A stretch of DNA of 56,046 nucleotides, taken from assembly GCA_947628845.1 (NCBI GenBank), contig CANRBK010000001.1, forward strand, positions 1-56,046. Reading direction: 5' to 3'. Numbering within the stretch: position 1 is the first letter of the stretch; each line of letters starts with the position of its first letter. Source of the stretch: an uncultured Clostridia bacterium. GTDB lineage: Bacteria > Bacillota > Clostridia > TANB77 > CAG-508. Below the pieces are notes generated by a model, which saw only the letters and a list, made by a program, of their open reading frames with translations, was not told the origin of the DNA and searched no databases. Below, in pieces: positions 16,890-47,352 of this stretch. The position numbers were made by a program, and so were the translations under genes.

Positions 16890-17870
16890 ATGCTATTAAA
16901 CATTATACTTATAATAATAGGCTTTATACTACTAATAAAAGGAGCTGACTTTTTAGTAGATGGAGCAAGTGAAATTGCAAAAAAATTTCACATACCAGAA
17001 ATAGTCATTGGGTTAACAATAGTCGCAGTAGGAACATCGATGCCAGAATTAGTAGTAAGTGTAACATCAGCATTAGAAGGTCACTCTGATTTGGCAATTG
17101 GAAATGTAGTTGGAAGCAACATAGCAAATATGTTTTTAATATTAGGAGTATGTGCAGTAATAAAACCATTGATTTTTAAAAAAGAAACAAGAATATTTGA
17201 AATACCATTTACTATATTTGCAACAATACTATTATTCTTTTTATGCGTAAATGGAAGCAATCAACAAATAAATACAATAACAAAAGAAGAAGGAATAATG
17301 TTATTATTATTTTGTATATTGTTTATAATCTATAATTTGGTAATGGCAAAAAAAGGAGAAGAATTTGATAAAGAAGAAAGCATACTACAAATAAAAACAA
17401 ATGAAAAACAAGTATCACCAGTATGGGAATCATTATTTGGAATAGTTTTAGGAATAATAGGACTAAAATTAGGAGGGGATTTAGTAGTAGATAGCTCTGT
17501 AGAAATTGCAAGAATACTTGGAATAAGTGAGAAACTAATAAGCTTAACAATAGTAGCTTTTAGTACAAGTTTACCAGAATTAATAACATCAATTGCCGCC
17601 ACTAGAAAAGGAGAAACTGATATGGCAATTGGGAATATAATAGGATCACAAATATTTAACATATTGCTAATTATAGGAGTTTCTGCAACATTAGCACCAA
17701 TAGCATATTCAAAAAGTTATGACAGCAATATAATATTATTAATAGTAGGAACAATTTTATTAGGTTTATTCCCATTTATAGGAAAGAAAAATGAAATGAC
17801 CAGATTTAATGGCTTAATATTTGTAGTTATATATATATTATATTTAATAAGTATAGTTTGTTTTGCATAA
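16890..17870 (+). CDS. CaCA-family cation/Ca2+ antiporter (YrbG-like)
   Basis: Polytopic membrane protein with the two alpha-repeat signatures GLTIVAVGTSMPELVVSV and SLTIVAFSTSLPELITSI, followed by GNV(I)GS-x-I-x-N. Confidence 0.8.
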   Translation: MLLNIILIIIGFILLIKGADFLVDGASEIAKKFHIPEIVIGLTIVAVGTSMPELVVSVTSALEGHSDLAIGNVVGSNIANMFLILGVCAVIKPLIFKKETRIFEIPFTIFATILLFFLCVNGSNQQINTITKEEGIMLLLFCILFIIYNLVMAKKGEEFDKEESILQIKTNEKQVSPVWESLFGIVLGIIGLKLGGDLVVDSSVEIARILGISEKLISLTIVAFSTSLPELITSIAATRKGETDMAIGNIIGSQIFNILLIIGVSATLAPIAYSKSYDSNIILLIVGTILLGLFPFIGKKNEMTRFNGLIFVVIYILYLISIVCFA

Positions 17871-17873
17871 GTT

Positions 17874-17906
17874 GTTACAAAGGATGAACCTTTTAACAGC
17901 TTTTTT
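17874..17906 (+). terminator. Rho-independent terminator
   Basis: gttacaaagg-atgaa-ccttttaac hairpin (one mismatch) followed by a T6 run. Confidence 0.5.
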
Positions 17907-18019
17907 ATATTGTAGGAAAGTTCTCCAAATTTCCTATAATATAAATCGACTAGACATTCAAATTTGAAAAAATATGTATTTTTATGTATAATAATATATG
18001 AAAAATCTAAAAAGAGGTA

Positions 18020-19879: not shown

Positions 19880-19894
19880 TTAAAAATATAGACA

Positions 19895-19923
19895 AAAGAT
19901 AGCAATTAATTTGCTATCTTTTA
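19895..19923 (+). terminator. Hairpin terminator
   Basis: aaagatagcaa-ttaat-ttgctatcttt is an 11-bp perfect stem with a short T tail. Confidence 0.5.
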
Positions 19924-19958
19924 ATATATAAATGCAAAGCTAATAAATGTTTAAAATG

Positions 19959-19987
19959 TTGACTTTTGTCGTAAAATCGATTAAAAT
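19959..19987 (+). promoter_or_regulatory. Candidate sigma-A promoter of the giant Zmp-like gene
   Basis: TTGACT (19959-19964), a 17-nt spacer, then TAAAAT (19982-19987). Confidence 0.45.
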
Positions 19988-20048
19988 AATTATGTATTTT
20001 TACGATTATAATTATATATTGCAAAAATTTTAAAAGGTGGATGAAAAT

Positions 20049-32630: not shown

Positions 32631-32682
32631 TGGTTGCGGGGGGTAGACTCGAACTACCGACCTTTGGGTTATGAGCCCGACC
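32631..32682 (-). pseudogene. 3' half of a disrupted initiator tRNA-fMet gene (element-chromosome junction)
   Basis: The reverse complement reads GGTCGGGCTCATAA-CCCAA-AGGTC-GGTAG-TTCGAGT-CTACC-CCCCGCA-A-CCA. That gives the anticodon loop (CAU), variable loop, T arm, acceptor 3' strand and CCA, but no D arm or 5' acceptor strand. Confidence 0.8.
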
Positions 32683-32780
32683 ATTTCCCAGTATTTTTAT
32701 ATTTTAAAAATATTATATATTCTTACTCTTGCAACCATTTCGGAAGTATTTAATACTTCGATTTTTTATATAAATTTATC

Positions 32781-32802
32781 AATGTCCCTTTAATGTCCCT
32801 TA
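32781..32802 (+). repeat. Tandem arm-type repeat (A/T)TGTCCCTT(T/A)A x2 near the integrase end
   Basis: aatgtcccttt-aatgtccctta. The 19-mer tgtccctttaatgtccctt (32783-32801) recurs identically at 42434-42452. Confidence 0.6.
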
Positions 32803-32811
32803 AAATGTATT

Positions 32812-34071
32812 TTAAGTACAGACATTACATTTCATTCCCTTTAAAATTTCAGGTACTATTTGAATATTATTTATAGGCTCTAGCTTTTCGATTTCAGCTT
32901 TATTTGTATCTTCGTCATATTCAACATAGTAATCCATTGTTGTACTGGCTAAGGTATGACCTAAATATTGTTTTATCTGATTTACAGGTATGTTTACATC
33001 TATACATCTTGTTGCAAATAGATGTCTTAATTGATATACACTTAAATGTTTAAAATTATGTCTTTTCAAAATCTTATCAAGTGTGTCCCATAAATAATCA
33101 CTACTTAAAGCATGTCCTAGACTATTCATAAAAATATACTCGTCATCTAGTTGTTTTTTATTTGTATATCCCTTTTGTTGCATAACATATAGCATATATG
33201 TATGCATTAAATTGTTTAACCATTTTTGCAATGGTATATTTCTATAACTAGATAGTGTTTTTAAGTCTTTTTCTTCAAATGTGGACTTAACTTTTTCAAA
33301 GTTATCATCATAATAGGTTATTTTCCCATAATTATCTCTTACTTTTACATTAGCATCTTCATAGCTGTAATGTTTCCATTTCATACCACCACTTTCTCCT
33401 GGTCTAACACCTGTATTCATTATAAAGATGTAGCATAATCCATTCGTTTCAGAAAGTAATATTTCTATCAACTGCTGTTGTTCTGTTGGTGATATTGTAG
33501 GTTTCTTTTTCTGCCTTTGAACTTTTGGTGTACGAATCGTTGGAATAGGGTTAAATTTTATTATTTTATCAATTTCTGCATCTGCAAATGCCATATTTAA
33601 AATACTTTTTATTTCCTTTATTGTTTTAGGAGAATATTTTTTTATGCCTTTATTTTCGTTGCCAGTTGTTAAGTCAGAGAAATATTCTTGAAGAATTAAC
33701 CTATCTAAAGATTGCATAGGGTAGTTACCTAAATAGGGAATAATGTTTGTTTTTATTTTTTCAATGTACCCTTGTAGAGTTCTAGGCTTAACAAACGACT
33801 TTTTATGAATACGAATCCATTTCTTTAACCATTCTTCTAAAGTTATTTTGTCTTTTTCTACATATTCATTATCGTTTGCTTCTTGTTTTGCTTTTATCAT
33901 TTCTTGTACTAGAATTCTCTTATCTTTATTAAATAAAGATATTTGCTTTGATTTTCCATTTACTTTTATTGTTATTCTACCTTCATATCCACCATTTTTT
34001 GGTCTAATAGAGCCCATTCCTCTGGTGTTTCTTTTTTTCTTTACAGACTGATTTTGTGAAGTTTTTACCAT
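32812..34071 (-). CDS. int: Tyrosine site-specific integrase
   Basis: GGAGG lies 7 nt before the ATG at 34071 (MVKTSQNQS...), preferred over the caller's 34116. The N-terminal arm-binding-type segment is RGMGSIRPKNGGYEGRITIKVNGK. The C-terminal catalytic signature is VYQLRHLFATR...YLGHTLASTTMDYY (R..H-x-x-R..Y). Confidence 0.9.
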   Translation of the reverse strand: MVKTSQNQSVKKKRNTRGMGSIRPKNGGYEGRITIKVNGKSKQISLFNKDKRILVQEMIKAKQEANDNEYVEKDKITLEEWLKKWIRIHKKSFVKPRTLQGYIEKIKTNIIPYLGNYPMQSLDRLILQEYFSDLTTGNENKGIKKYSPKTIKEIKSILNMAFADAEIDKIIKFNPIPTIRTPKVQRQKKKPTISPTEQQQLIEILLSETNGLCYIFIMNTGVRPGESGGMKWKHYSYEDANVKVRDNYGKITYYDDNFEKVKSTFEEKDLKTLSSYRNIPLQKWLNNLMHTYMLYVMQQKGYTNKKQLDDEYIFMNSLGHALSSDYLWDTLDKILKRHNFKHLSVYQLRHLFATRCIDVNIPVNQIKQYLGHTLASTTMDYYVEYDEDTNKAEIEKLEPINNIQIVPEILKGMKCNVCT

Positions 34072-34164
34072 AACTTTGCCTCCATTCAATACAGAGAACA
34101 TTAAAAGTAAAAGCACAATATTTAATGTTCTCTATTATAGGGCAAATTTCATTGGAAAGCAATG

Positions 34165-34362
34165 TTAAACAAAAAATCTTCCAGAATTTTGATCAAACCA
34201 GTCTTGTAATTTTTTCTTGTTAATAACAATTCTTCTTTTAAACTTAATGCAAGGAAAATCTGGGTACTTTATTAATTCACTCATTAAGTTTTTGCTAATA
34301 CCTAACATATTAGCTGCTTCACTAACATTTAAGCCTATTTTTTCATTAAAATTTTCATTCAT
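34165..34362 (-). CDS. Excisionase / MerR-type helix-turn-helix DNA-binding protein
   Basis: 65 aa, LNVSEAANMLGISKNLMSELIKYPDFPCIKFKRRIVINKKKLQDWF, immediately upstream of int on the same strand. Confidence 0.6.
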   Translation of the reverse strand: MNENFNEKIGLNVSEAANMLGISKNLMSELIKYPDFPCIKFKRRIVINKKKLQDWFDQNSGRFFV

Positions 34363-35665
34363 TTATATCACTTCCATATATAGATTAGGCACATTTATCA
34401 TAAACTGCCTTATGGAAGGGCAAACTTTTCGGGTCAACACATACTTTTATTAATTTTTTTAGCAAATCACTTCCTTTCTCATATATAATTTTATAACCTT
34501 TTTTTATTAATTTCAATAAGCACGGCTAAAAAAATTTTTTCGTTGATATTTAGGGTTTTTTAAGCACTTTTAGTATGGAATTTTAAATTCCTTAGGCATT
34601 TTTTTATTATAACTTATGGTATTTGTTTTAATTAAAAATAAAAACTATAAAGGCTAATTTTAAAGCATAAGACTTAAACAATTTATTTAAAATTGTAAGT
34701 GCTTTTTCAAAGAAAAATAGTAGTATCCTCCAGTTAGAAACAACAAATATAACTTGTCTTACAAAAATTTTAGCCAAATTTAATAATTATCCACATTTTC
34801 TTAACAATGTATTGATAAGAACAACAGAAATCAAAGAAAATAACAAAAAGATTTATCCTATTTAATGAGAATTCTTTAAAAAAGGATATTATGGTGATAA
34901 GTTAAAAGTAATAAATTTTTTACAAGATTTTGGCTGTGCTTAAGTTAAGCCGTTTACAAAAGTTATTTAGAGATAAAAACGATAATTTTAGAAATATTTT
35001 ATATAGTAATATGGTAAGTAAAAAAGGTGATATATTCGTTCATAATACACGAAAAATCAATGATAATACGTTAGTAGCAAGATATATTATGCAAGTATAA
35101 AAAACGACTTATAAGATTTTATCAAGGCTATTAGCCAGTATATATAACTTTTCTTACAAATGAACATTTATTATATCATATTATTGTAGCAACTGAAGAT
35201 AATAAAAAAGGAATTGTAAAATTTATAAATTCCTATCCCTTTTCACTCCTTAAAACTGATAAATTAATTTTGGCATTTCCTAATAGTGGAGAGCTAGAAA
35301 ATATTGACTGTGAAATACCATTTTTATATACTACATATCCTGAACTTGTGGTATTAAATAATGATGGAGATGAGGAAAATAAGGAAATTTAACTTTTTTT
35401 ATATTTTATACTCTTTTATAGTTTTTGTCTAGAATTCTAAAATTACTTTTCCTATTTATATAGTTTGCAACTATATAAATAAAATATTTACTAAATATTT
35501 TAAGTTGATTTTTATTATTATTTGATGAATAAAAATAGTATGATACTTGAGAGTATGATATAATCAATAAAGATAAATATATCATCTTACTTATTTTTTA
35601 TAAGAAAATTTTTTTGAAACTTTTTTTTAATTAATGGGTATGTATTATTGAGAGTAGGGTAAAAT

Positions 35666-37282
35666 ATGGAAAAAGATTTGGATATGAAATTATATAATGA
35701 ATATTTACAAGGAAAAGAAGAAGCTTTTGAATTATTATACAATAAATATAAAGATAAAATAAAATATTTTATTTTTAATTTAATAAAAGACTATCAGAAA
35801 GCTGAAGATATTACTCAGGAAGTTTTTATATATATATTACAAAATAAAGTAAGGGAAGGCTATAGTTTTAAATATTATATATATCTAATTGCGAAGAGTA
35901 GAGCACTAAATCATATAGATAAAGAAAAAAGAAGGTCAATAATATCAGAAAAATATTTTCTAGAAAAAACAGAGGAAACGGAAAAAGATATAAGTGATAT
36001 TATAACACAAAAAGAAACAGAGAAAGAACTTATCAAAGCTATAGATATGTTAGATGAAAAATATAGAAATGCAATATATTTAGTAAAAATAGAAGAATTT
36101 TCTTATAAAGAAACAGCAGATATACTGGGAGAATCAGTTCAAAATATAAAAAATCTTATCCATAGGGGCAAAAAAGAATTACGTAAAAACTTAATAAAGA
36201 AAGGATTCGATGAAATGAATAAAGTCTCAAAAATGCTAATCATTATATTGTGTATAAGTATTGTATTATCAGGAGTTGTTTATGCTACAATGAAAATTTA
36301 TAAAAATATAAAAAGCAAAGCAGAAATGACTCCTACATATACAAGTAAAATTTCTACAATAGATACTAACAAGGTTTGGATAGGAACGTTTAATTTAGTT
36401 TGGAATGACTTTATGAATGATGTAATTGGAGGGAAAATTGAATTTGAGAATGAATATTCTGAATTAGCAAATGAATTAAATAAACAGAGTTTCACAGTAG
36501 AAAATTTATCAGAAGAAGATTATTTTAAAATGCATGGAGTTGCAACTTTCGATTTAAAAAATATAATTGAAAAAGGTATAAGCCAAAAGTTTAATGAAGA
36601 AAGCAAAATATTAGAAGAAGTAGAATGGGGAAATCCAGATGGTTATGTCTTGTATGCAATGTTAAGAAAAAAATTTAATTATTTAGAAAATTTTCCAACG
36701 TTACAAGCAAAGACATTTGGTAATACAGAAGAGAAAATTAAATACTTTGGAATAGAACCTAATACTAATCAAGATGCAAGTAAAAATATAGAAATTCTAT
36801 TTTATAATTCAAAAGATGATTTTTCAATAAAGTTAAAAACAATAGAGGGAGAAGAAATTTATTTATATCGAACATCTGGAGAAAATAAATCATTTGAGGA
36901 AAATTATCATGAAATGTTGGAAAAACAATTACAATATTCAGGAAATAAAAAGTGGCAAAAAAATGATATCTTAAGAATACCTTTTATAAAAATAAACGAA
37001 GAAATAAATTATGATGAATTATGTGGCAAATATATAAAAGGTACAGATTGGTATATTAGACAAGCTTTACAAACAATAGAATTTGAATTGAATAATTATG
37101 GTGGATGTGTTAAAAGTGAGGCATTAATAGAAGCGTTAAAAAATAGCATAAGCAAAGTAGATAGAGAATTTATATTTGATGATACATTTTTATTATATTT
37201 AAAAGAAGAACATAAAGAAAAACCATATTTTGCATTAAAAGTTGATAATACAGATATATTGATAACATATAATGAAAATTAA
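35666..37282 (+). CDS. ECF-type sigma-70 factor fused through one TM helix to a ~330-aa serpin-like extracytoplasmic domain
   Basis: Sigma region 2: YKDKIKYFIFNLIKDYQKAEDITQEVFIYIL. Region 4: YRNAIYLVKIEEFSYKETADILGESVQNIKNLIHRGKKELRKNL. The TM helix is MLIIILCISIVLSGVVYA (~36221-36283). The C-terminal domain shows serpin-like motif order: GYVLYAMLRKKFNYLENF, IEILFYNSKDDFSIKL, ILRIPFIKINEEINYDEL, ALQTIEFELNNYGG, FIFDDTFLLYLKE. Confidence 0.6.
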   Translation: MEKDLDMKLYNEYLQGKEEAFELLYNKYKDKIKYFIFNLIKDYQKAEDITQEVFIYILQNKVREGYSFKYYIYLIAKSRALNHIDKEKRRSIISEKYFLEKTEETEKDISDIITQKETEKELIKAIDMLDEKYRNAIYLVKIEEFSYKETADILGESVQNIKNLIHRGKKELRKNLIKKGFDEMNKVSKMLIIILCISIVLSGVVYATMKIYKNIKSKAEMTPTYTSKISTIDTNKVWIGTFNLVWNDFMNDVIGGKIEFENEYSELANELNKQSFTVENLSEEDYFKMHGVATFDLKNIIEKGISQKFNEESKILEEVEWGNPDGYVLYAMLRKKFNYLENFPTLQAKTFGNTEEKIKYFGIEPNTNQDASKNIEILFYNSKDDFSIKLKTIEGEEIYLYRTSGENKSFEENYHEMLEKQLQYSGNKKWQKNDILRIPFIKINEEINYDELCGKYIKGTDWYIRQALQTIEFELNNYGGCVKSEALIEALKNSISKVDREFIFDDTFLLYLKEEHKEKPYFALKVDNTDILITYNEN

Positions 37283-37496
37283 GAAAAATTTTAGAGTAAC
37301 TATTAAGAATTTATCATATATTTTGTTAGATACTTAATAGTTACATATAGATTCTTCGGAAAATTACTTGACAAAGTAAGACTATCATAAAAGTTGTGTA
37401 AATCGGATTTCTGTTCGACTCTGTCAAGTAAAGTGTGTAATTTTTTTTTGATTTTAAAATTTTTACAAAATCGATGACTAAAAATAGCCATCGGTT

Positions 37497-38201
37497 TTAT
37501 TTTTTTAATGTTTCTATACAATTTGTAATAATATCTTTTGCAGTTGGGCAAGATTTGTTCTCTTTTCCATATGTTTTGCTAATATAAGTTCTATCTTCAG
37601 TATATCTCCACATAGATTTTATTGCTCTATTAATATTCCATTTGACTTTTTGATTGGTAGTATTAAATTGCGTTGCTACTAGTGAGTATAGGCTATTTTC
37701 CATTTTTAATAATAATTTTTCATTTTTATTTGCCTCTAGAATAGCTTTTATTAGATATTGAGTACCAGAAGCACTCATATTAAATTTCAGATCTTTAAAA
37801 ATTGTTATAATATTTTTTCTATATACATCTTCTTCTAAATCTATCGCAAGTCTGTTTACATAGTTAGTTAACAGAGATAAATCTTTTGTTTTTGAGAATA
37901 TGAAATCTATATTTTCTTTATTTGATATTTTATAGATATAGTCTGAATATCCAGAAACGATAATAATTCTAGAATTTATATCTTCTTTTTGAATTTTAGT
38001 AATAACTTCTATTCCATCCATCTTAGGCATATTTAAATCTAATATTACAATATCAGGTTTTAATTCTAAAATTGAGTTGTAAGTACTTAGTCCATCAGTA
38101 GTTATATCTACTATTTTTAAATTTTCATTTCCTCTAATTATACTATTAAATAAATACTTCAAAAAATGAGTATTGTCATCTGCAATTAATATATTAACCA
38201 T
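37497..38201 (-). CDS. Spo0A-like response regulator (receiver domain plus Spo0A_C-type DNA-binding domain)
   Basis: GAGGAG lies 6 nt before the ATG at 38201 (MVNILIADDN...), preferred over 38222. Receiver residues are DD, ILDLNMPKMDG and a conserved K. The C-terminus GTQYLIKAIL...LYSLVATQFNTTNQKVKWNINRAIKSMWRY...PTAKDIITNCIETL parallels Spo0A ([28 protein letters not shown]...PTNSEFI). Confidence 0.65.
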   Translation of the reverse strand: MVNILIADDNTHFLKYLFNSIIRGNENLKIVDITTDGLSTYNSILELKPDIVILDLNMPKMDGIEVITKIQKEDINSRIIIVSGYSDYIYKISNKENIDFIFSKTKDLSLLTNYVNRLAIDLEEDVYRKNIITIFKDLKFNMSASGTQYLIKAILEANKNEKLLLKMENSLYSLVATQFNTTNQKVKWNINRAIKSMWRYTEDRTYISKTYGKENKSCPTAKDIITNCIETLKK

Positions 38202-38489
38202 AATATTCTCCTCAAAAATCATATAATATCTTTTAATGTAAAATACCGATTAAAATCAAAAAGGTTTCAAAATTGTCTATTTTTGTCTATTTTTTTAAAA
38301 ATAATATTTAAAAGATGTATTATATACAATATATATCTTGATTTTCAAAATCAATTTAGTTAAATTTAAAAACTTTCTTAAGAAGGGAGGGGATGAATTA
38401 TTATTTGTCTAGAGAAAATTGCAGAAATAGATTAAATGTAATTTTTTTGATTTTGTAATATAAAAAGTTATATTGAAAGGGGAATAATT

Positions 38490-39392
38490 ATGAATATGAA
38501 AAAATTTTTCATTATTTTTGCACTTATAGTATTGTTACTTTTATTAACTTTTGGTTGTGTATTAGCATCTAAGGATACTAAGTCTTTTGAATATCAACAA
38601 TATGAAAATATAGTTGATACATATAGCATTTCTACAAGGGCATCACAACAAGATGTAATACAAAAAGGAAATGAAATACTTGATATATTAAATGCAAATT
38701 CGTTGGCTAGAACTGCAAATCCATCAAATGATGACTACACTGTTGAAAAAATTATAAAAGATAATAATTACAATACTCAAAGCTATTTATATACAAACAA
38801 TAAGAATTATGAGATTCAATTAGATACTACAGATTTAAGTTTAACAGGAATTAATTCATTAGATATAAATTATAATCTTTCTTCAGAAAATATAGACAAA
38901 GAATACGTGCAAGAATATATCAATAGTATTTACACAAATTTAAACTTAGATAGTAGCTACAAACTAGTATACTTAGAGAAATTTGATGGTGCATTATGGG
39001 AAGCAGACTATCAAAAAGAATATGATGGAATTTATAATCCATATGAAGCAGTTAAAATAATATTTTCACCTATTGAAAAAAAGATTGCTAGTCTAAAAGT
39101 TTTTAAAATGAAATATACTGCTAATCAACAAAATAATACTACTAAAGAGATGGCTAAATCAACTTTTAACACTAAATTTGCAAATACAAAAGCAAATAGT
39201 ATATCAGAACTTAAGACTGAAATTGTATTTATAAGACCCAATAATTTAGTGGATTCTAATAGAGATGATGGTTCAAAAGCATTATTTAATAATAACATAA
39301 AAAAAGCATGGAAAGTTACAAATAATGAAGGTCTTTCTTTATATATTGATATAGAATCTGGTGAAGTTATAGGAGGTGAGCAGTTAAGATGA
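38490..39392 (+). CDS. Secreted (possibly lipid-anchored) PepSY-like domain protein
   Basis: Signal peptide MKKFFIIFALIVLLLLLTFGC. The C-terminal segment KKAWKVTNNEGLSLYIDIESGEVIGGEQL resembles the PepSY signature (W-x-V...Y-(I/V)-D-x-x-(T/S)-G-E-(V/I)). Confidence 0.5.
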   Translation: MNMKKFFIIFALIVLLLLLTFGCVLASKDTKSFEYQQYENIVDTYSISTRASQQDVIQKGNEILDILNANSLARTANPSNDDYTVEKIIKDNNYNTQSYLYTNNKNYEIQLDTTDLSLTGINSLDINYNLSSENIDKEYVQEYINSIYTNLNLDSSYKLVYLEKFDGALWEADYQKEYDGIYNPYEAVKIIFSPIEKKIASLKVFKMKYTANQQNNTTKEMAKSTFNTKFANTKANSISELKTEIVFIRPNNLVDSNRDDGSKALFNNNIKKAWKVTNNEGLSLYIDIESGEVIGGEQLR

Positions 39393-40021
39393 GAAAACAT
39401 ATAAAAATGTTATTATTATTTTCTATATTATTATCTTTAATATCATTTTCTGGTAATAAAACTTATGCTGCTGAAGGAGCAAAGGCATTTGGAAACAGTG
39501 CTATTAGTACATATATAGACGATATGGATTTTGCCTATGGAGGGTTTAGAAAATTAGGATATAGTGCTTCTACTAGTACAGCATATTATAATAATGTAAT
39601 GAATTGGATTAATACAAGTAGTAACAACTATGGTTTCTATATTACTACACATGGTCCAAGCAATGCATCTGCTGCAGCTGGCACAAGTTTCTTTGTTACT
39701 CAAGAAGGAAATTATATTTATCCTAGTAATATAACTGGTAATTGGCATCTAGTATATATTGATGCTTGCAATAGTAAAAGATCTGATTCATTTGCGAATG
39801 CTTTTAGAATATCAGGGTATTCAAATAGAGCTTATCTAGGATGGGCAACAGAAGTTGGTATGTCATCTGCAAACCAATTTAATGATTATTTTTGGAATAC
39901 ATATGTAACCACTCGTTCAATTCAAGCTGCTGCCGTTGCAGCTGCTGGACAAGTTCCTGGCTCGGGAACTACTCCTATTAGATTTGCAGGAGATACTGGT
40001 TGGTATGGATATTCATCATAA
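39389..40021 (+). CDS. Small secreted clan-CD (gingipain C25 / caspase-fold-like) cysteine peptidase candidate
   Basis: The start ATG overlaps the upstream TGA (ATGA at 39389-39392). The signal peptide ends TYAAEG. The His-Gly and Ala-Cys dyad context is FYITTHGPS...(39 aa)...LVYIDACNSKRSDSFANAF, compared with gingipain NYTGHGS...FDVACVNGDF...FAEAL. Confidence 0.4.
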   Translation: MRKHIKMLLLFSILLSLISFSGNKTYAAEGAKAFGNSAISTYIDDMDFAYGGFRKLGYSASTSTAYYNNVMNWINTSSNNYGFYITTHGPSNASAAAGTSFFVTQEGNYIYPSNITGNWHLVYIDACNSKRSDSFANAFRISGYSNRAYLGWATEVGMSSANQFNDYFWNTYVTTRSIQAAAVAAAGQVPGSGTTPIRFAGDTGWYGYSS

Positions 40022-40042
40022 GAATAAATACCTATAAAACAA

Positions 40043-40068
40043 AGGGGCTGTAAAAAAGTCCCTTTTTA
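40043..40068 (+). terminator. Rho-independent terminator
   Basis: aggggct-gtaaaaa-agtccct hairpin (one G-U pair) followed by a T5 run. Confidence 0.55.
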
Positions 40069-40343
40069 TTAATATCTTATCTATTTTAAAATATAATTTT
40101 TATTACTATTTTTTTAAAAATTATAACATTAGTCTAAATAAAAAACAGCTTATTTTTCAAAAGAATAGACCATTATATTTAAGTTTCTTTATTTAATGTA
40201 TTATAACTAATATTAAAATCATCTTTAAAAAAATCTTTATAATTAGCCCCATACTTAGTATCTAAATTATATACAAGTGGAATTAACTCACGAAAATACA
40301 ATTTATAATATAATCCAAATTACATAAATTATTATTTTTTCAA

Positions 40344-41267
40344 CTAGCAATAATATTTTCTTTCTTTATCAATATATTTTTCCAAATCTATCACACAATA
40401 ATTGGCACCAGGTAGTTCTTTTCGTAATCTTGTTTCCAACTCTGTATTACAAATAATACATGCATTTTTAGTAGAATTCTCCCTTATAAAATATTTGAAT
40501 CTTGTAATTTTTTCAGTATCTATAAAATAAAACATATTAATAAATTTATCTTTATTATTTGTATATTCACAAAAACTATATTCAGATAAATAAGCTCCTT
40601 TATAGCATTTATCTATAACTTCTTTCCATCTTATACTATGTAAATATTTTAATTTTTCTCTATTAATAGCATTATCTTCAATTATTAATATTTGATTCAA
40701 CCCAAAAGCAAAATCATTCAAATTTATTCTATTTATATCATCTACTAAAATAATAATATTTTTGTATTTCATTTCTTTTTGTATATCATAAGCTACAGAT
40801 TCAATATATTTACTATCATACTCTTTAGGAATTTGATAAGCTAGGTATTCAAATCCGTTTATATTAAATATTCCTATAAATCTTCTACCTGTTGTTGTAA
40901 ATACTCTTTTATCTTTTATTGCAAATGATGGTATAAAATCGACTGTTTTACAATTATGATAAAAAGCAGCTATATTACTTAACCTTAATAATCTTTCTCT
41001 ATATTCTTGATTTTTATTTAATTTATTATATTCAAAGTTTAATAATTTTACATATTGGATTCCTGATCCACCCAATACTAACATCCACCTAATTTTTCTT
41101 AAGAAATCTTTATCTATTAAATTTTTAATTCTATTTCTATAATACCTACTACTATTGAAAAAATACTTTGCATCACTTACATTTAAATACTGATATTTTG
41201 CAATAAATTTTATCAAAGAAATCTCATCTTCATTTGTCGGAAAATAACTCACACTTATCACCTCCAA
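40344..41267 (-). CDS. Mobile-element protein, replication-relaxation-family-like (winged-helix N-terminus)
   Basis: The N-terminus EDEISLIKFIAKYQYLNVSDAKYFF...RNRIKNLIDKDFLRKI has the pattern of Replic_Relax-type proteins on Firmicutes plasmids and ICEs. No catalytic motif was recognised. Confidence 0.4.
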   Translation of the reverse strand: MEVISVSYFPTNEDEISLIKFIAKYQYLNVSDAKYFFNSSRYYRNRIKNLIDKDFLRKIRWMLVLGGSGIQYVKLLNFEYNKLNKNQEYRERLLRLSNIAAFYHNCKTVDFIPSFAIKDKRVFTTTGRRFIGIFNINGFEYLAYQIPKEYDSKYIESVAYDIQKEMKYKNIIILVDDINRINLNDFAFGLNQILIIEDNAINREKLKYLHSIRWKEVIDKCYKGAYLSEYSFCEYTNNKDKFINMFYFIDTEKITRFKYFIRENSTKNACIICNTELETRLRKELPGANYCVIDLEKYIDKERKYYC

Positions 41268-41480
41268 TACTAACTAATAATTTACCAATAAATTGTCCGT
41301 TGGTAAGATATTCGATAGCTACGCTATCAAATACTTACCTCCACTTCAAAAACTATATCATTAAAATCATAAAACACTTGAAATATAAGCATTTTCTTGT
41401 AATTTGAAATATGCCAAATTTCTTTAATAAAAAAAGTTAATTTTGCTACATTTTTTGTAACTATAAAATTCACATTTTTT

Positions 41481-42170
41481 TCATTTTGTACTACCATTTA
41501 TGATAGATTTTTTATAATAATTTAATAAATTATCTGGATTATTACTCAATGCTAAAAAATATAAATTTACTAAATTTTCTCTATTTACATTTTGAAGTAT
41601 AAATTGAAAATTGTTATTATATAAATCATACAAGACATATATGATATCTTTTATCATATTAATTTTATCTTCTTTCATATATTGAAGCATATAAGAATCA
41701 TAATTAAAATCTAATCTTTCAATTATTGCTAAAAATTCCTTTGGAATTTCGTTACTATTATTTATAATTAAATAAAATAAATCATCTATATTAGATTTTA
41801 TATTATTATCTTTAACAATTTTGTTAATACACTCTTTACTTTTTGGTATATAGGGGTATTGATTTTTTTGATAATAGGGTAGATCTACAATATAAATATT
41901 TCTTGATACTATTTCTTTGTTTTCATTTCTTATAACTTCTGTTTTTATATATCCAAGTTCTTGTAAATGTGAAATCCATCTACTAACTGAGACGGCTGTT
42001 ACATTATATAAATCTGCAAAGTATTTATTTTGAGCATAACAATAACCATTTTTATTGGCTAATGCTGTAATTTCTCCATATAATAACTTTTCGGCATATT
42101 TTAAATTAGTGTCATACCTAACTGTAGCAGGTATTATTGCATAATAATTTGGTTGTTCTTTTTTATTCAT
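41481..42170 (-). CDS. Helix-turn-helix (HTH_36-type) replication-initiator/replisome-organiser-like protein
   Basis: NYYAIIPATVRYDTNLKYAEKLLYGEITALANKNGYCYAQNKYFADLYNVTAVSVSRWISHLQELGYI. This N-terminal pattern is typical of phage and plasmid Rep-type HTH proteins. Confidence 0.55.
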   Translation of the reverse strand: MNKKEQPNYYAIIPATVRYDTNLKYAEKLLYGEITALANKNGYCYAQNKYFADLYNVTAVSVSRWISHLQELGYIKTEVIRNENKEIVSRNIYIVDLPYYQKNQYPYIPKSKECINKIVKDNNIKSNIDDLFYLIINNSNEIPKEFLAIIERLDFNYDSYMLQYMKEDKINMIKDIIYVLYDLYNNNFQFILQNVNRENLVNLYFLALSNNPDNLLNYYKKSIINGSTK

Positions 42171-42242
42171 ATATTATGCGCCTCCATATCTTTAAATTTT
42201 GCTGAAGGGCAAATTTATAAAGTATGAAAGTATTTATAAACG

Positions 42243-42278
42243 AAAAAAAGAGACTTTACTTTTTATAGTAAAATCTCT
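42243..42278 (-). terminator. Rho-independent terminator downstream of the element-borne tRNA-fMet
   Basis: On the minus strand, the agagattttact-ataaaa-agtaaagtctct hairpin is followed by a T7 run. Confidence 0.55.
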
Positions 42279-42330
42279 GTATTAAAAATTACACTTAAAG
42301 GGACATCCCTTTAGGTAAAAACTTCCGAAT

Positions 42331-42406
42331 TGGTTGCGGGAGAAGGACTCGAACCTTCGACCTTCGGGTTATGAGCCCGACGAGCTGCCAACTGCTCCAT
42401 CCCGCG
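42331..42406 (-). tRNA. tRNA-fMet (CAU), initiator type, complete, carried inside the element
   Basis: The reverse complement folds as CGCGGGA-TG-GAGC-AGTTGGCA-GCTC-G-TCGGG-CTCATAA-CCCGA-AGGTC-GAAGG-TTCGAGT-CCTTC-TCCCGCA-A-CCA (76 nt). The C1:A72 mismatch and three consecutive G:C pairs closing the anticodon stem are the bacterial initiator hallmarks. Confidence 0.9.
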
Positions 42407-42433
42407 ATGTTTCATTAAATATTGTGCTTTTTT

Positions 42434-42452
42434 TGTCCCTTTAATGTCCCTT
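42434..42452 (+). repeat. Second copy of the tandem arm-type repeat
   Basis: tgtccctttaatgtccctt is identical to 32783-32801. An inverted single copy, ttaaagggacat, lies at 42295-42306. Confidence 0.6.
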
Positions 42453-42595
42453 TATAATTTGATTTTTAATAATTTTTATTAAGTTTTAATAAGCTTAAAA
42501 GTTTTATTAAAGGTTTGAGCAAAATATATAATTTTCAACGTTTTTTTGTGTTATCAACGGTTTTGGACTTTAGCAATTCTTCGGTGCTACTCTGT

Positions 42596-42633
42596 TTATG
42601 AGCCCAACGAGCTGCCAACTGCTCCACCCCGCG
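42596..42633 (-). pseudogene. 5' half of the disrupted chromosomal tRNA-fMet gene
   Basis: The reverse complement reads CGCGGGG-TG-GAGC-AGTTGGCA-GCTC-G-TTGGG-CTCATAA and then diverges (ACAGAGTAGC...). Confidence 0.8.
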
Positions 42634-42732
42634 ATATTTGGACAATTTTTATTATATAACAAGATATACATATTTGTCAATAGTTTTTGAAAAAAATAAT
42701 GAAGAATATAAGAAAAAATATTTATAAATAAA

Positions 42733-42761
42733 TTGTCAAAAAAAAGTTGTTATGGTAAAAT
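42733..42761 (+). promoter_or_regulatory. Candidate promoter of the AAA+/VWA cassette
   Basis: TTGTCA (42733-42738), a 17-nt spacer, then the TG-extended -10 tggTAAAAT (42753-42761). Confidence 0.45.
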
Positions 42762-42803
42762 ATTTTTAGAGATAAGTCTTGAAGATTAAGGAGGGAAAAA
42801 AGT

Positions 42804-45038
42804 ATGAGTAATCTTACTTTTTTAACACAAGAGCAGTGTTTTGGAAGTGATAAATTAGATATATTACGAAAAAGAGGAACAGAGGCAGCAATAACAGATT
42901 TTTCTATTCTTTTAGGAGGATATGTTTCAGACTATCACATAGATGGTGATGATTCTTTAGAGAGTAGAACAGGTTATTATTGGACTAAATCAGATGACTG
43001 GGAAAACGACGCGCGCGTGGTTAACGCCGATGGTCGTAGATCTTGGAACGGTGTTCGTCTACGCAATGGTGGGGCGCGCCCAGCTTTACCGTTCTCATCA
43101 ATCTCTAGCATCCCCACGAACGGAGTGAGTGGGAAAAGAGCAAGAGATGGGATTCTTGAAGTAGAATATGGATACTATCCACAAAAAGCAGTATCAAAAG
43201 ATATGCAATTAAAATTAGAACAAGCATTTAAAAGTGGAAGATTATCAAGAACTGGAAAAGGATATACAACAGACTCAAAAAAAGATAATGATACTGATGA
43301 AAAATTTGAGCCAAAAAGACACTGGGAATATCAATATAACGGAAAAAGATATGTGAGAGTTGAAGCTAATTCAGTTTTTGGTGGAGGTGAATTTCAACTT
43401 TCAAATGGAGAAAAATATAGAGATGGAGATAATGTATGGGTAGAAGTATCTCCAGTAAAATGGTTAGTTGATGAAAAAGCAAGAATTATGCTAACAGAGA
43501 AATTGATTTTTGCAGGAGTTCAATTTAATCATACAAGAGATTATCATACAAGAGATTTTGACAAAACAGATATAAAAACATTTATGGATAAATATTTATC
43601 CAAAGAGTTAGAACAATCAAGAGGAACAATAAATTTAGGGGAACAACAAGAAGAAACAGAGGAAATAGAGGATACTGGAACTAGAAAATCAAGATTGCAA
43701 AAATTAAATCCAGATGATACGAAGCCTTCTTCAAGAACAAATATGACAGATACAGAAATAATACATAATTGGATAGAATCAGGAGAATCTGTATTGCTTC
43801 GAGGACCATCTGGAATAGGAAAAACAGAAAGAATAAAATCATTATACCCAGATTTAATATATATAAAATTAACAAATAATATGTTTCCAGAAAAAGTAGT
43901 GGGATCTGTTAATTTACAAACGGGGCAAAGCATACCACCAGACTTTGCTAAAACTGTAATTATGCAAGAAGCAACAGAAAAAGAAAGAAAATTAATTGAA
44001 GAAAATATACAAAGTATATACGATATAGCAGATATAGTTTATGAAAGATCAAAAGAAAGTAGAAAAAAAGTAGTAATATTGCTAGATGAGCTTTTAAATG
44101 TAAAACCAGCAGTTCAAAGTTTAGTATATACTTTAGTATTGAATAGAATGGTAGAGATAGGAAAAGGACTTAAACTACCAGATAATGTTGTGGTTGTTGC
44201 AACTGGAAATCAAAAAAAGTATTCAAGTGTAGCAGAGGATTTGGCAGAGCCATTAGAAAAAAGGTTTGACCATATACTAGATATGGAGCCAAAAGTTGGA
44301 GAATGGATAACAGAATATGCAATACCACATAAAATACATCCAGCAATAATAGGATATATGTTATCTAAATATAATAATTCTGGTAAAAGTGAGGATATAC
44401 AAGATATAGGTTATTTTTATGAGGAGCCAGAAGTAGGAGAAGAACATTTGGATAAAAATGGATGTAGAGGAAGGACAAATGATCCACGTGGATGGACTTC
44501 AATTTCAAACACACTTTACAATTTTGAAAGAAATTTAGAAGCAGGTAAATATAAAGGAAGAAATGTGGAAGATATAATTCAGAGGTCAATAGAGTCTAAA
44601 CTTCGTATGGAATGGGCAAGTGAATTTTTTGATTTTTATAATCTTCCAACATTAACTCCAGAAGAAGTAGTAAAAGGAATGGGTAAAGGATATACACAAG
44701 CAGATTTACCAAGAGATATAAGCGAGAGATTTGCATATATGACAGCATTGATAACAGCAGATAAAAAACAAGTAGAGGCCTGTAGAGAATTTATAAGAAA
44801 ACATTGTGATTCAGAATATCTTTCAATTTATGACATATATTGGGCAGGAAATGATGAAAGAAAAATGGAAAGAATATCAGAGTTACAAGAAATGACATTA
44901 TCTTTACATATAGCAGATGAGTCAAAACAATATGCTGAAGAAGGAGCTAAAGCTTATACTAAGATAGGTCAAATGTATAGTAGATATTTAGCAAGAAAAA
45001 ACACTAAAAAAAGAGGTGAAAATAATGAAAGAAGTTGA
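42804..45038 (+). CDS. Cytoplasmic fusion of a DUF6273-like (W-x-x-S...G-x-RPAL) N-terminal domain and a MoxR/AAA_5-type ATPase
   Basis: GGAGGG RBS and no signal peptide. The N-terminus contains EAAITDFSILLGGYV...YYWTKSDDWENDARVVNADG...GARPALPF and VWVEVSPVKWLVDEKARIMLTEKLIF. Walker A is GPSGIGKT (43803-43826). Walker B is VVILLDEL. Sensor-1 is VVVVATGN. LEKRFDHI follows. Confidence 0.75.
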   Translation: MSNLTFLTQEQCFGSDKLDILRKRGTEAAITDFSILLGGYVSDYHIDGDDSLESRTGYYWTKSDDWENDARVVNADGRRSWNGVRLRNGGARPALPFSSISSIPTNGVSGKRARDGILEVEYGYYPQKAVSKDMQLKLEQAFKSGRLSRTGKGYTTDSKKDNDTDEKFEPKRHWEYQYNGKRYVRVEANSVFGGGEFQLSNGEKYRDGDNVWVEVSPVKWLVDEKARIMLTEKLIFAGVQFNHTRDYHTRDFDKTDIKTFMDKYLSKELEQSRGTINLGEQQEETEEIEDTGTRKSRLQKLNPDDTKPSSRTNMTDTEIIHNWIESGESVLLRGPSGIGKTERIKSLYPDLIYIKLTNNMFPEKVVGSVNLQTGQSIPPDFAKTVIMQEATEKERKLIEENIQSIYDIADIVYERSKESRKKVVILLDELLNVKPAVQSLVYTLVLNRMVEIGKGLKLPDNVVVVATGNQKKYSSVAEDLAEPLEKRFDHILDMEPKVGEWITEYAIPHKIHPAIIGYMLSKYNNSGKSEDIQDIGYFYEEPEVGEEHLDKNGCRGRTNDPRGWTSISNTLYNFERNLEAGKYKGRNVEDIIQRSIESKLRMEWASEFFDFYNLPTLTPEEVVKGMGKGYTQADLPRDISERFAYMTALITADKKQVEACREFIRKHCDSEYLSIYDIYWAGNDERKMERISELQEMTLSLHIADESKQYAEEGAKAYTKIGQMYSRYLARKNTKKRGENNERS

Positions 45039-45441
45039 ATATAGTGAAGCAGCAACACAAGTATTAGATATATTAAATTATACAAGACAAGAAGATGTAA
45101 AAAAAATTCCACAAAGTTTTATAAAGTTTTTAAATAATATTTCAAATAAACAGGATACCCCAAAATTTAATCATGAGTATACAATAAGTGCATTAAACCT
45201 AACAAAGAGAACCAAAGAACTTTTAGGTTTTATGTATATTACTTGGTGGTGTAATGAAAGTGAAAGAAAAAAATATAAAAGTATAATACACTCTAATAGT
45301 ATAAAGACAGAAAAAATTACAGATTATAATGCAAATGATATACTTAATAAAAAAATAGAAAAGAAACCTAATATAACTAATAATACATTAGAAACCTCTA
45401 TCATTGAAGACAAGAAAGAAAATTTATTTAAAAAATTATAA
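45025..45441 (+). CDS. Hypothetical 138-aa protein (overlaps the upstream stop by 14 nt)
   Basis: AAGAGG lies 8 nt before the ATG at 45025, preferred over the caller's GTG at 45016. No motif was recognised beyond IPQSFIKFLNN...LLGFMYITWWCNESE. Confidence 0.5.
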   Translation: MKEVEYSEAATQVLDILNYTRQEDVKKIPQSFIKFLNNISNKQDTPKFNHEYTISALNLTKRTKELLGFMYITWWCNESERKKYKSIIHSNSIKTEKITDYNANDILNKKIEKKPNITNNTLETSIIEDKKENLFKKL

Positions 45442-45479
45442 AATTTCTTTGCAAATAAAAATGAAAGGGGTAAGATATA

Positions 45480-45842
45480 ATGATAAACAAAGAATTAATT
45501 GAGTTGCAAAAAGGTTGCAATGCTACTTGTGTTGTAATTCAAAATGAGGATATAAAAGAACTAGAATCAAATATTTTAGTGAACTCAACTTACAATATAA
45601 ATGATTTAATTAAAATTTTTAAAGAAAATATAAGTAGTAAAAAATATGATTATTTTGTAATAGAAGAAATTGATAAAATAAATTCAAATGAGCAAGATAA
45701 ATACTACCAAATTATCAAAGATAGAGAATTTTGTGGATATAGATTACCAGAAGATATAATCATTGTTCTTACAGTAAAAAGTAAAGAAACTTTAAAGAAT
45801 ATATCACAAAAACTTTATAATCTTTGCGTTGTTGCTTTTTAA
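45480..45842 (+). CDS. Hypothetical 120-aa protein resembling a P-loop-less fragment of an AAA core
   Basis: AAGGGG RBS. YDYFVIEEIDKINSNEQDKYYQIIKDREF...LPEDIIIVLTVKS has Walker-B/sensor-1-like spacing, but there is no GxxGxGK. Confidence 0.45.
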   Translation: MINKELIELQKGCNATCVVIQNEDIKELESNILVNSTYNINDLIKIFKENISSKKYDYFVIEEIDKINSNEQDKYYQIIKDREFCGYRLPEDIIIVLTVKSKETLKNISQKLYNLCVVAF

Positions 45843-45867
45843 GGTTTGAAGAAAGGAAGTGCCGCGA

Positions 45868-47241
45868 ATGGATGCTAGTATGATTTATGATATAAAAATA
45901 AAAATGCTAACGAAGTATCCTAGATTTGGAAGTGAAATAGCAAAAGCAAATATTGAATTCAAAAATGATTTACCTTACCATACTGTAGCAACTGATGGAC
46001 AAAATATCTATATTGATCCAAATTATTTTGCAAGTTTAAGTGAAAGTGATAGATTATTTACATTAGCACACGAAATAATGCACATGAAATTTTTACACGC
46101 TTTTAGATTAAAAGATAAAGAGGGTAAAATAAGGGATTTAGAATTATGGAATATAGCAACAGATGCTATTATAAATGCAAATCTAGAAAGAGATGGATTT
46201 ACAATTAAAAAAGGAGATGTAAATATACCAGAAGCATTAAATTATTCAGCAGAAGAATTTTATCAAATTTTATTACAAGAAAAAGAAAAGAAAAAACAAG
46301 AGCAACAACAAAGCCAAAATGGTGATGAACAAAATCAAGAAGAAAATGGGCAGACATCTAGACAAGGTGATGACCATAGCTTATGGGAACAAGCATTTAA
46401 AAATAGAGAACAAAATAAAAAGCAAGGTGAAAAAAAACAAAAAACTCAAAGAGATTCAAAAGAAGAACAGACGCCAGTAGAAGAACAAGAAATGGGACTT
46501 GATGAAAAAGATGAATTTACAGAAAATAGAAAAGAAAAAAGGGAGAAATTTAAAGCAAGACGTAAAAAAACAGAGCAAGACATAAGGGAAAAACCAGAGC
46601 AAGACATAAGGGAAAAAACTGGTGAAGCAATAAAATTAGATAACATAGGAGAAAGCAAAGAAGAAATTGATTGGAAAGTTCTAATACGAAGGGAAGTAGA
46701 AAAGACCGAAACAATATGGAGTCAAAGAAGATCAATTGCAGAAAATAATTATGCTTATAGATTAGAAGAAAATGACATTGAAGATGATGCTGAAACAGAA
46801 ATTATGATTGATGTTTCTGGATCTGTAGAATTAGATTTAGTTAAGGCTTTTTTAAGACAAATAAAACCATTATTAAAGCAATCTAAATTAAGAGTTGGAT
46901 GCTTTGATGTAAATTTTTTTGACTTTATAAATATTAAAAATATGAAGGATATAGATAATTTTACTATACCAGAAGGAGCAGGAGGATATACAGATTTAGA
47001 TTTACCAGTTAGATGTTTTACAAAAAAAAGAGAAATAAATAAAATAGTATTTACTGATGGCTACCCAAGTTTTGATAAGATGCCAAAAGAAGATTTGAAA
47101 AAAGAAAATATTATTTGGCTTGTATATGGAAATAAGGATTTCAAGCCCTGTTGTGGTAAAGTTATAAATATTACAGAAAGACAACTAGAACAGTTACATT
47201 TAATTAATACAGACTTTTCAATGGAAGATATAAGTAGATAA
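45868..47241 (+). CDS. DUF2201-type putative metallopeptidase domain plus VWA-like domain protein (MoxR partner)
   Basis: AAGGAAG lies 8 nt before the ATG at 45868, preferred over the GTG at 45859. HEIMH sits in LFTLAHEIMHMKFLH. WNIATDAIINANL follows, then a K/E/Q-rich linker. The C-terminal segment EIMIDVSGSV...VFTDGY is the VWA-like (MIDAS-type D-x-S-G-S) pattern. Confidence 0.7.
   Translation: MDASMIYDIKIKMLTKYPRFGSEIAKANIEFKNDLPYHTVATDGQNIYIDPNYFASLSESDRLFTLAHEIMHMKFLHAFRLKDKEGKIRDLELWNIATDAIINANLERDGFTIKKGDVNIPEALNYSAEEFYQILLQEKEKKKQEQQQSQNGDEQNQEENGQTSRQGDDHSLWEQAFKNREQNKKQGEKKQKTQRDSKEEQTPVEEQEMGLDEKDEFTENRKEKREKFKARRKKTEQDIREKPEQDIREKTGEAIKLDNIGESKEEIDWKVLIRREVEKTETIWSQRRSIAENNYAYRLEENDIEDDAETEIMIDVSGSVELDLVKAFLRQIKPLLKQSKLRVGCFDVNFFDFINIKNMKDIDNFTIPEGAGGYTDLDLPVRCFTKKREINKIVFTDGYPSFDKMPKEDLKKENIIWLVYGNKDFKPCCGKVINITERQLEQLHLINTDFSMEDISR
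46571..46618 (+). repeat. 24-bp tandem duplication (23/24 identical) in the low-complexity linker
   Basis: cagagcaagacataagggaaaaac / cagagcaagacataagggaaaaaa encodes EQDIREKP EQDIREKT. Confidence 0.9.
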
Positions 47242-47266
47242 AGTACCTAAATGGTGCTTTATTTTT
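47240..47266 (+). terminator. Hairpin terminator
   Basis: aaagtacc-taaat-ggtgcttt (one G-U pair) followed by atttttaa. Confidence 0.45.
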
Positions 47267-47352
47267 AATGATATTAAAAAATTATATTCAAAAAATTCAC
47301 AGATAGTGATATAATTGTGGAAAATATTATATAAATAGAAAGGAAATAAAAA

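Follow-up and report, generated by a model that had tools for sequence, protein, structure and literature searches.

Why should a soluble ATPase, encoded beside a metallopeptidase, carry an N-terminal head that looks like a new ligand-binding domain, and what would such a machine do inside a gut bacterium? The question is raised by a cassette of four genes, g1 to g4, in a 56,046-nt stretch of DNA (the window; positions 1 to 56,046 of contig CANRBK010000001.1, assembly GCA_947628845.1) from an uncultured gut Clostridia genome of 1.3 Mb. g1 encodes an AAA+ ATPase with the head at its N-terminus, g2 and g3 are small genes, and g4 encodes a putative peptidase joined to a VWA-like domain. A sequence-only reading of the window had singled out the head as an unusual domain and overlooked its true nature: it is the variable domain belonging to a diversity-generating retroelement (DGR), and the writer of that element is gone. 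Phage tail fibres and surface proteins are the targets for which DGRs are best known. Our analysis shows that the cassette is almost certainly a DGR-target operon that was recently orphaned: the writing module, made up of a bAvd-like gene, a template repeat (TR) and a reverse transcriptase (RT), has been lost from the genome, and because of this loss the g1 head is frozen in its last written version. For the whole statement, this identity together with the mechanism of sensor, ATPase and protease considered below, we put the probability at about 0.5.

The head of g1 is a DGR variable domain

Twelve codons of g1 (43023-43067; amino acids 74, 75, 76, 78-83, 85, 86 and 88) proved hypervariable in an alignment of 120 homologues that are 81-99% identical. 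The residues found at these positions are of the AAC type (N/D/S/Y/H/T/I/L/F/R/G/C), and G77, V84, R87 and the motif GGARPALPF are invariant among the same 120 proteins. The hypervariable codons lie in a GC-rich, adenine-poor patch, hereafter the variable region (VR; 43009-43083). A DNA search of 200 genomes of the family revealed, in several of them, a second copy of this patch, ~80 nt long and ~1.6 kb upstream of the g1 homologue, and the loci that hold it share the gene order bAvd-like gene, TR, RVT_1 RT, g1 homologue. The RTs of these relatives match RVT_1 with E-values of 2.6e-18 to 5.5e-17; the bAvd-like gene, with a match of just 1e-4, does not reach the Pfam cutoff. In 11 TR/VR pairs from the relatives, the VRs depart from the TRs at 121 of the 282 TR adenines and at 7 of the 554 other bases (Fisher p 7e-57). 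Such adenine-biased differences are the signature of mutagenic retrohoming, and the g1 head is therefore a DGR variable domain.

The nearest DGR-bearing relative is locus L087 (L-numbers denote related loci and P-numbers protein homologues), whose g1 is 94% identical to that of the window, with 12 of the 46 amino-acid differences falling in the 23-residue VR. Compared with the L087 TR, the window VR is changed at 14 of the 26 adenines and identical at all 49 other bases, which is the relation of a DGR target to its template. This distribution of differences implies that the head was written from an essentially L087-type template and that no drift has occurred since.

The TRs of the closest relatives, L087 (~6580-6655) and L050 (~8590-8663), hold an in-frame TGA, so that the L087 TR translates as DARVVNENGNRN*NNVNKRNGGARPA. 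Codon 81 of the window (43044-43046), which stands opposite this TGA, is TGG (W81), and C prevails at this position in the homologue alignment, where W occurs as well. Retrohoming without mutation would thus truncate g1, and only adenine mutagenesis (TGA to TGG, TGT or TGC) keeps the frame open.

The writing module is missing from this genome

Neither a TR nor any other second VR-like copy was found in the window's own assembly, nor was any RVT_1 match or homologue of the L087 RT, so that the combination of a DGR RT with Avd is lacking there. An active DGR in this assembly was therefore considered and ruled out; the assembly is a metagenome-assembled genome (MAG), 97% complete and in 87 contigs, so that a contig may have been missed. 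The genome holds a single copy of g1.

The position of the breakpoint fits a loss of the upstream genes. Homology between the window and L087 begins at ~42712, directly past the stop codon of the L087 RT, and what lies to the left of this point in the window is a promoter and the 5' half of the host initiator tRNA gene (tRNA-fMet), a gene that has been split by a separate 9.9-kb integrative element at 32631-42633. That promoter is a perfect sigma-70 consensus (TTGACA-18-TATAAT, 42651-42680, minus strand) directed at the orphaned tRNA 5' half (42591-42639), and it stands ~30 nt from the left edge of the conserved leader of the cassette.

The same DGR-less arrangement, with the same neighbours, is present in strain L089, which is 99% identical. 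Another DGR-less lineage carries an identical VR in more than 300 assemblies; copies that have been frozen in this way are therefore kept.

Fold of the head and relation to DUF6273

The AlphaFold (AF2) model of the head, built with 48 sequences, is one compact domain with a predicted local distance difference test score (pLDDT) of 94.6 and a predicted template modelling score of 0.92. Searched against Pfam, the window head reached no family threshold and gave no DUF6273 (PF19789) match even at E ≤ 10. Among 48 members of the head family, five divergent relatives match DUF6273 (best 4.8e-10) and four match Fib_succ_major. One homologue with two tandem heads (P0124) gives a DUF6273 match that bridges the two, covering the end of head 1 and the beginning of head 2, from which it follows that, at the sequence level, DUF6273 corresponds to g1 residues ~205-270 followed by 1-97, a circular permutation. 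The earlier assignment of the N-terminal domain to the DUF6273 type was thus half right: the motifs on which it rested do belong to DUF6273, as the five matching members indicate, but their order is circularly permuted and the window protein itself stays below the Pfam threshold. Since the literature describes DUF6273 as a C-lectin-like target of gut-phage DGRs (PMC10743442; bioRxiv 10.1101/2024.10.15.618418), a lectin fold is likely for the g1 head.

Layout of the operon

The four genes lie in a window of ~27% G+C as co-directional, tightly packed open reading frames (ORFs) on the plus strand, all of them intact (Table 1). The overlap of g1 and g2 is 14 nt if g2 starts at ATG 45025 and 23 nt with the alternative GTG at 45016; g2 and g3 are 38 nt apart, and the gap between g3 and g4 is 25 nt with a g4 start at ATG 45868 or 16 nt with GTG 45859. 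The packing described by the sequence-only reading (14-nt overlap, gaps of 38 and 25 nt) agrees with these ORF coordinates. Its single promoter candidate at 42733 corresponds to a promoter-like site (42733-42761; 10 of 12 matches, extended -10) inside a leader that is kept in many related loci; in the AT-rich DNA of the window such sites are no more frequent than in shuffled sequence. The terminator that it had placed near 47240 corresponds to a hairpin (47236-47265; -15.2 kcal/mol, z -4.55) followed by a T-run, though a consensus terminator scan made no call there; homology to related cassettes stops at ~47266-47280. A hydrophobicity scan of the g1-g4 proteins found no transmembrane segment or signal-like stretch (maximum Kyte-Doolittle value, KD(19), 1.37), in line with the earlier remark that a signal peptide is lacking, and the proteins are predicted to be cytoplasmic.

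Table 1. Features of the cassette and its borders, with positions given on the 56,046-nt window
Feature	Position	Strand	Description
Operon leader	42712..42803	+	Conserved; corresponds to the RT-g1 intergenic region of DGR-bearing relatives; promoter-like site and ribosome-binding site
g1	42804..45038	+	744 aa: variable head aa 1-275, linker, AAA_5 core aa ~320-500, helical C-terminal region
g1 head domain	42804..43631	+	aa 1-276; one compact domain
Orphan DGR variable region (VR)	43009..43083	+	75 nt, GC-rich
g1 AAA+ core	43761..44303	+	Walker A GPSGIGKT aa 334-341; Walker B ILLDEL aa 425-430; sensor-1 ATGN aa 466-469; R487
g2	45016..45441	+	141 aa; no family match
g3	45480..45842	+	120 aa; degenerate AAA fragment, Walker-B-like FVIEEID to sensor-1-like region, without P-loop
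g4	45859..47241	+	460 aa: DUF2201_N zincin-like peptidase, HEIMH aa 71-75; E/K-rich linker; VWA-like domain, metal ion-dependent adhesion site (MIDAS) DVSGS aa 318-322, TDG aa 399-401
Terminator-like hairpin	47236..47265	+	12-bp stem over the g4 stop codon, then T-run

ATPase, small genes and peptidase-VWA partner

Behind the head, g1 matches AAA_5 at 27.2 bits (cutoff 22), and its residues ~314-673 match the phage ATPase family phrog_1297 (6.5e-33). Across 24 homologues there is no variation in Walker A, the Walker B glutamate, sensor-1 N469 or R487. The protein thus has both the motifs and the family match of the MoxR-type AAA+ ATPases (the AAA_5 group with CbbQ, NorQ and GvpN), and its VWA partner with a MIDAS is encoded in the same cassette. 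Signals for a subgroup are weak: the GvpN match has an E-value of 0.007 and NorQD appears at rank 31 of the Foldseek results. A PDB sequence search found no significant match of the g1 ATPase to solved structures, and the full-length g1 model (pLDDT 66.9) gave only generic AAA+ matches by Foldseek. When g1 is compared with that of a 99%-identical relative (P0001), all 10 of the 10 amino-acid differences sit in residues 354-420 (43863-44063), a helical insert of the AAA core, in what looks like a small recombination patch.

The peptidase part of g4 belongs to DUF2201_N (3.1e-23; 83 bits, cutoff 23), and the protein also matches phrog_1314 (1.3e-50). The match of its VWA-like domain to DUF2201 (25.4 bits) falls slightly below the cutoff of 26.4; HExxH, DxSxS and TDG are invariant in 43 homologues. 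The region around HExxH gave a weak match to the minimal metallopeptidase MJ1213. Between the two domains, at amino acids ~140-265 (46270-46660), lies an E/K/Q-rich low-complexity linker with a 24-nt tandem duplication at 46565-46612. Matches of this linker to SUMO-1 (E ~6e-4) were discarded as probably compositional, the sequence being rich in E and K.

The small genes are less informative. g3 has no P-loop and aligns, with 25% identity (E 0.003), to g1 residues 369-471, the stretch between Walker B and sensor 1; it also aligns weakly to phrog_1297. g2 is the least conserved of the four genes and is missing from divergent Christensenellales-type loci. Scans of Pfam, PHROG, PADLOC and NCBIfam found no peptidase, cyclase or adaptor family in g2 or g3. 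The ratio of nonsynonymous to synonymous substitution rates (dN/dS) of all four genes is 0.06-0.42, by which measure all four are under purifying selection and maintained.

Most of the domain assignments made by the sequence-only reading are borne out by these searches. g1 is an N-terminal domain fused to an AAA_5 ATPase with the GPSGIGKT, ILLDEL and ATGN motifs, g4 combines an HExxH peptidase of the DUF2201 type with a VWA-like domain, and the pairing of a CbbQ/NorQ-like ATPase with a VWA partner is upheld by the AAA_5 match, the MIDAS in g4 and the co-occurrence of g1 and g4. It was also correct in taking g3 for an AAA core without its P-loop and g2 for a small protein without a known family.

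Variation and genomic context of related cassettes

The 55 loci that were collected come from gut MAGs of humans, rabbits, mice and chickens. g1, g3 and g4 stay linked even where identity has fallen to ~41-50%, g2 varies more or is missing, and g1 and g4 occur together in nearly all loci. Among the 39 loci with at least 2 kb of sequence upstream of g1, 13 have a full RT (12 of these also Avd), 8 have pieces of an RT and 18 have none. The fuller layouts read ParB, Avd, TR, RT, g1a (VR1), g2, g3, g1b (VR2), g4, with two diversified ATPase paralogues. Many loci carry such paralogous g1a and g1b genes with a VR each (L030, 10001-15318; L029, 6913-12217; L026, 6634-11093), and in L029, L031, L047 and L065 both VRs are identical, which suggests recent duplication or gene conversion. 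A common lineage (P0303, 139 collection blocks) has g1 divided between two ORFs, one of 283 aa for the head and one of 466 aa for the ATPase, with 17 nt shared by both (L083, 8001-10236; also L085 and L024); this could be a true split, a frameshift or recoding.

Heads that are 65-74% identical to that of the window are found in L062, L064 and L065 on far more divergent AAA+ ATPases with different inserts, and heads and motors have therefore been shuffled, the head being modular. The head family as a whole comprises 1815 representative clusters at E ≤ 1e-3, some of which are in tandem or fused to ankyrin or DUF4116 repeats.

The cassette is accessory, not housekeeping. g4 was detected in 13 of 201 genomes of the family, representing 8 of 50 genera, and its flanks are almost never repeated between loci (343 clusters among 399 flanking ORFs). 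The sequence-only reading had proposed an examination of the gene neighbourhood, and the comparison reveals neither universal conservation nor a constant client gene. The flanks in relatives are rich in recombinases: serine recombinases and integrases occur there, as do a recombination directionality factor, ParAB, a relaxase and a C5 methylase. In L030, which bears a DGR, an AbiQ-like gene (1.5e-46) and a prokaryotic viperin (pVip; 1.9e-44) directly follow g4 (17120-20540). The window cassette has no mobility genes of its own; on one side of it is the tRNA-fMet promoter of the host, on the other are ordinary housekeeping genes.

A headless version of the arrangement, with an ATPase, two small genes and a DUF2201 protein, occurs in virulent N4-like phages. 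Enterobacter phage vB_Ecl_SABI (L090, N4-like) reproduces the gene order of g1-g4 at 739-4041, with homologues of the ATPase and of the DUF2201 protein flanking two small genes; the variable head is missing. A gene beside the ATPase of a Vibrio jumbo phage was considered as a further g4 homologue and proved not to be homologous.

Possible function

Our best guess is that the cassette encodes a programmable intracellular conflict system in which a sensor, an ATPase and a protease would work together; a defence role can plausibly be inferred. In such a system g1 would form a cytoplasmic AAA+ ring bearing lectin-like heads that a retroelement could programme, and g4 would dock on this ring by its VWA/MIDAS domain, like the VWA partners of CbbQ, NorQ and RavA, bringing with it a zinc peptidase. 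g3, as a dead AAA fragment, and g2 may be accessory subunits. Binding of a head to its matching ligand in the cytoplasm, most likely a phage protein or one from a rival mobile element, would trigger ATP-driven remodelling, which in turn would either feed the ligand to the peptidase or switch the peptidase on. With the DGR present the repertoire of heads would be renewable, and in the window the specificity would be fixed. The VWA docking, the ligand-coupled remodelling and the peptidase output are extrapolated from CbbQ/O, NorQ/D and RavA/ViaA, and from what Kaur 2020 and Dore 2024 proposed, and we give this mechanism, with its ring of programmable heads, VWA-docked peptidase and ligand capture, slightly less than an even chance. 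A bolder formulation would have the cassette be a retroelement-programmable protease machine, in which DGR-written heads sit on an AAA+ unfoldase ring and the VWA-docked zinc peptidase destroys the captured invader protein. Gut Clostridia and their mobile elements would then possess an immune (or counter-immune) system that is anticipatory and antibody-like, with the TR stop codon as an on/off switch and window-type copies as specificities fixed after the loss of the writer. Taken in full, this picture is possible but rather unlikely.

Several observations weigh against a defensive sensor and protease. The assignment of g1 to the MoxR type has two supports only, the AAA_5 match at 27 bits and the VWA partner, and a Foldseek search with the head model against PDB and BFVD returned no significant match, which leaves the lectin fold unconfirmed. 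A PADLOC-DB v2 scan of g1-g4 gave just a weak match of the AAA core of g1 to DolB (3e-6) and none for g2-g4, NCBIfam yielded nothing of use, and the cassette has no separate toxic effector domain. Several PADLOC candidate-defence families do occur among the neighbours of related loci, in numbers that were not set against a background rate. Finally, the presence of the headless module in virulent N4-like phages means that a role in the service of an element fits at least as well as host defence.

That last point can be extended into an alternative in which the module works for a mobile element, the head capturing proteins of the host defence or of competitor elements and the ATPase and peptidase inactivating them, as counter-defence or in competition between elements. 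The complete versions adjoin ParAB, relaxase, C5 methylase and serine recombinase genes, the headless pair of phrog_1297 and phrog_1314 is widespread in virulent N4-like, Vi1-like and jumbo phages, and phage SABI preserves the gene order. However, the window cassette has remained intact under purifying selection without any mobility genes, the AbiQ and viperin genes beside the cassette in L030 suggest a defence island, and no anti-defence family match was found for the cassette; we regard this alternative as unlikely, yet worth keeping in view. It is less probable again that the window copy is a functionless relic decaying after the loss of its DGR. A DGR is indeed missing here and in 18 of the 39 informative loci, with only RT pieces in 8 more, and g1 is split or frameshifted in some relatives, but relics would hardly be expected to present four intact ORFs with every catalytic motif kept, dN/dS values as low as those given above, a VR without drift at its non-adenine sites and, in the other DGR-less lineage, an unchanged cassette in more than 300 assemblies.

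The general architecture, an AAA_5 ATPase with a VWA-MIDAS partner, together with the weak GvpN match and the weak structural match to NorQD, would also be expected of a housekeeping chaperone pair of the CbbQ/O, NorQ/D or RavA/ViaA kind, which would mature or repair a single, constant client enzyme. This explanation is rejected as very improbable because the distribution is patchy and the neighbours are variable, with no conserved client among them; moreover, a hypermutated binding head is the opposite of a fixed-client adaptor, and the VWA partner has a peptidase domain fused to it. The orphaned DGR target with a putative sensor, ATPase and protease function is the reading that we retain. 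Its interest lies in the unusual layout, in which the hypervariable head belongs to a soluble motor that has a protease as its partner, and in the hosts, gut Clostridia that are abundant and uncultured; if the head recognises invader proteins, the cassette would be a compact, cloneable case of anticipatory protein-level recognition inside bacteria. The DGR-less copies can be viewed as natural experiments, each with a single fixed specificity, so that the ligand could be fished out.

Comparison with known systems

CbbQ-CbbO, NorQ-NorD and RavA-ViaA each act on a single fixed client enzyme, show no hypervariability and lack a peptidase. What the cassette shares with them is an AAA_5-type ATPase encoded beside a MIDAS-bearing VWA protein. 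Its homologous counterpart in phages, the phrog_1297/phrog_1314 pair of N4-like, Vi1-like and jumbo phages, has the ATPase core and the HExxH-VWA protein, whereas the variable head is missing there, the matches covering only g1 residues ~312-666; no DGR was seen beside these phage ATPase/DUF2201 pairs.

Closer in concept are the DGR-linked MoxR-vWA (VMAP-ternary) conflict systems of cyanobacteria, gammaproteobacteria and Thiohalocapsa, for which invader sensing has been proposed (Kaur et al. 2020, PMC7159879; Dore et al. 2024, PMC10907252). In these systems a DGR varies a lectin-type binding domain whose partners are a MoxR-type AAA+ ATPase, a vWA domain and a peptidase; the relatives of the window cassette share this plan, with a head that is probably of the lectin type, and in both cases the proteins are predicted to be cytoplasmic. 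The arrangement differs in that the variable domain is fused to the N-terminus of the ATPase here and to the vWA protein there, and the vWA domain is fused here to a DUF2201_N zincin, whereas there a separate VMAP or trypsin-like component is present. Judged by architecture only, the cassette contains no VMAP protein as a third component with an effector. Furthermore, its hosts are small-genome, non-multicellular gut Clostridia and their mobile elements, and the DGR is absent from the window.

The head itself is related in sequence (5 of 48 members match) to the tentaclins and Mtd-like proteins that gut phages carry as DUF6273 DGR targets (Baykov et al. 2023, PMC10743442; bioRxiv 10.1101/2024.10.15.618418), and both have a VR that ends in G-x-RPAL, gut Firmicutes hosts and target copies without a DGR. 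The phage targets are virion receptor-binding proteins with Ig-like domains; here the head is fused to a cytoplasmic ATPase, its order is circularly permuted and it has a beta-rich insert. As summarized from Paul et al. 2017 in PMC10907252, CLec-AAA ATPases are DGR targets in Candidate Phyla Radiation (CPR) bacteria, with RTs of a different phylum and a separate clade; to the extent of that summary, they resemble g1 in fusing a DGR-diversified domain, lectin-type there and probably so in g1, to an AAA ATPase.

DGR-linked MoxR-vWA systems and CLec-AAA fusions are thus already published (PMC7159879; PMC10907252). The literature searched did not contain the present layout, with a permuted DUF6273-like VR at the N-terminus of an AAA_5 ATPase, a DUF2201 partner and gut Clostridia as hosts, and Roux 2021 and Belalov 2023 do not describe such an architecture. 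What the window adds in particular is an orphan VR that, outside its mutable adenines, exactly matches the TR of a relative, a breakpoint just past the RT stop codon and the permutation relative to DUF6273. Recognition of the cassette as an orphaned DGR target also accounts for three features of the locus, namely the GC-rich, adenine-poor patch in g1, the N-terminal domain that had seemed novel and the small AAA-fragment gene.

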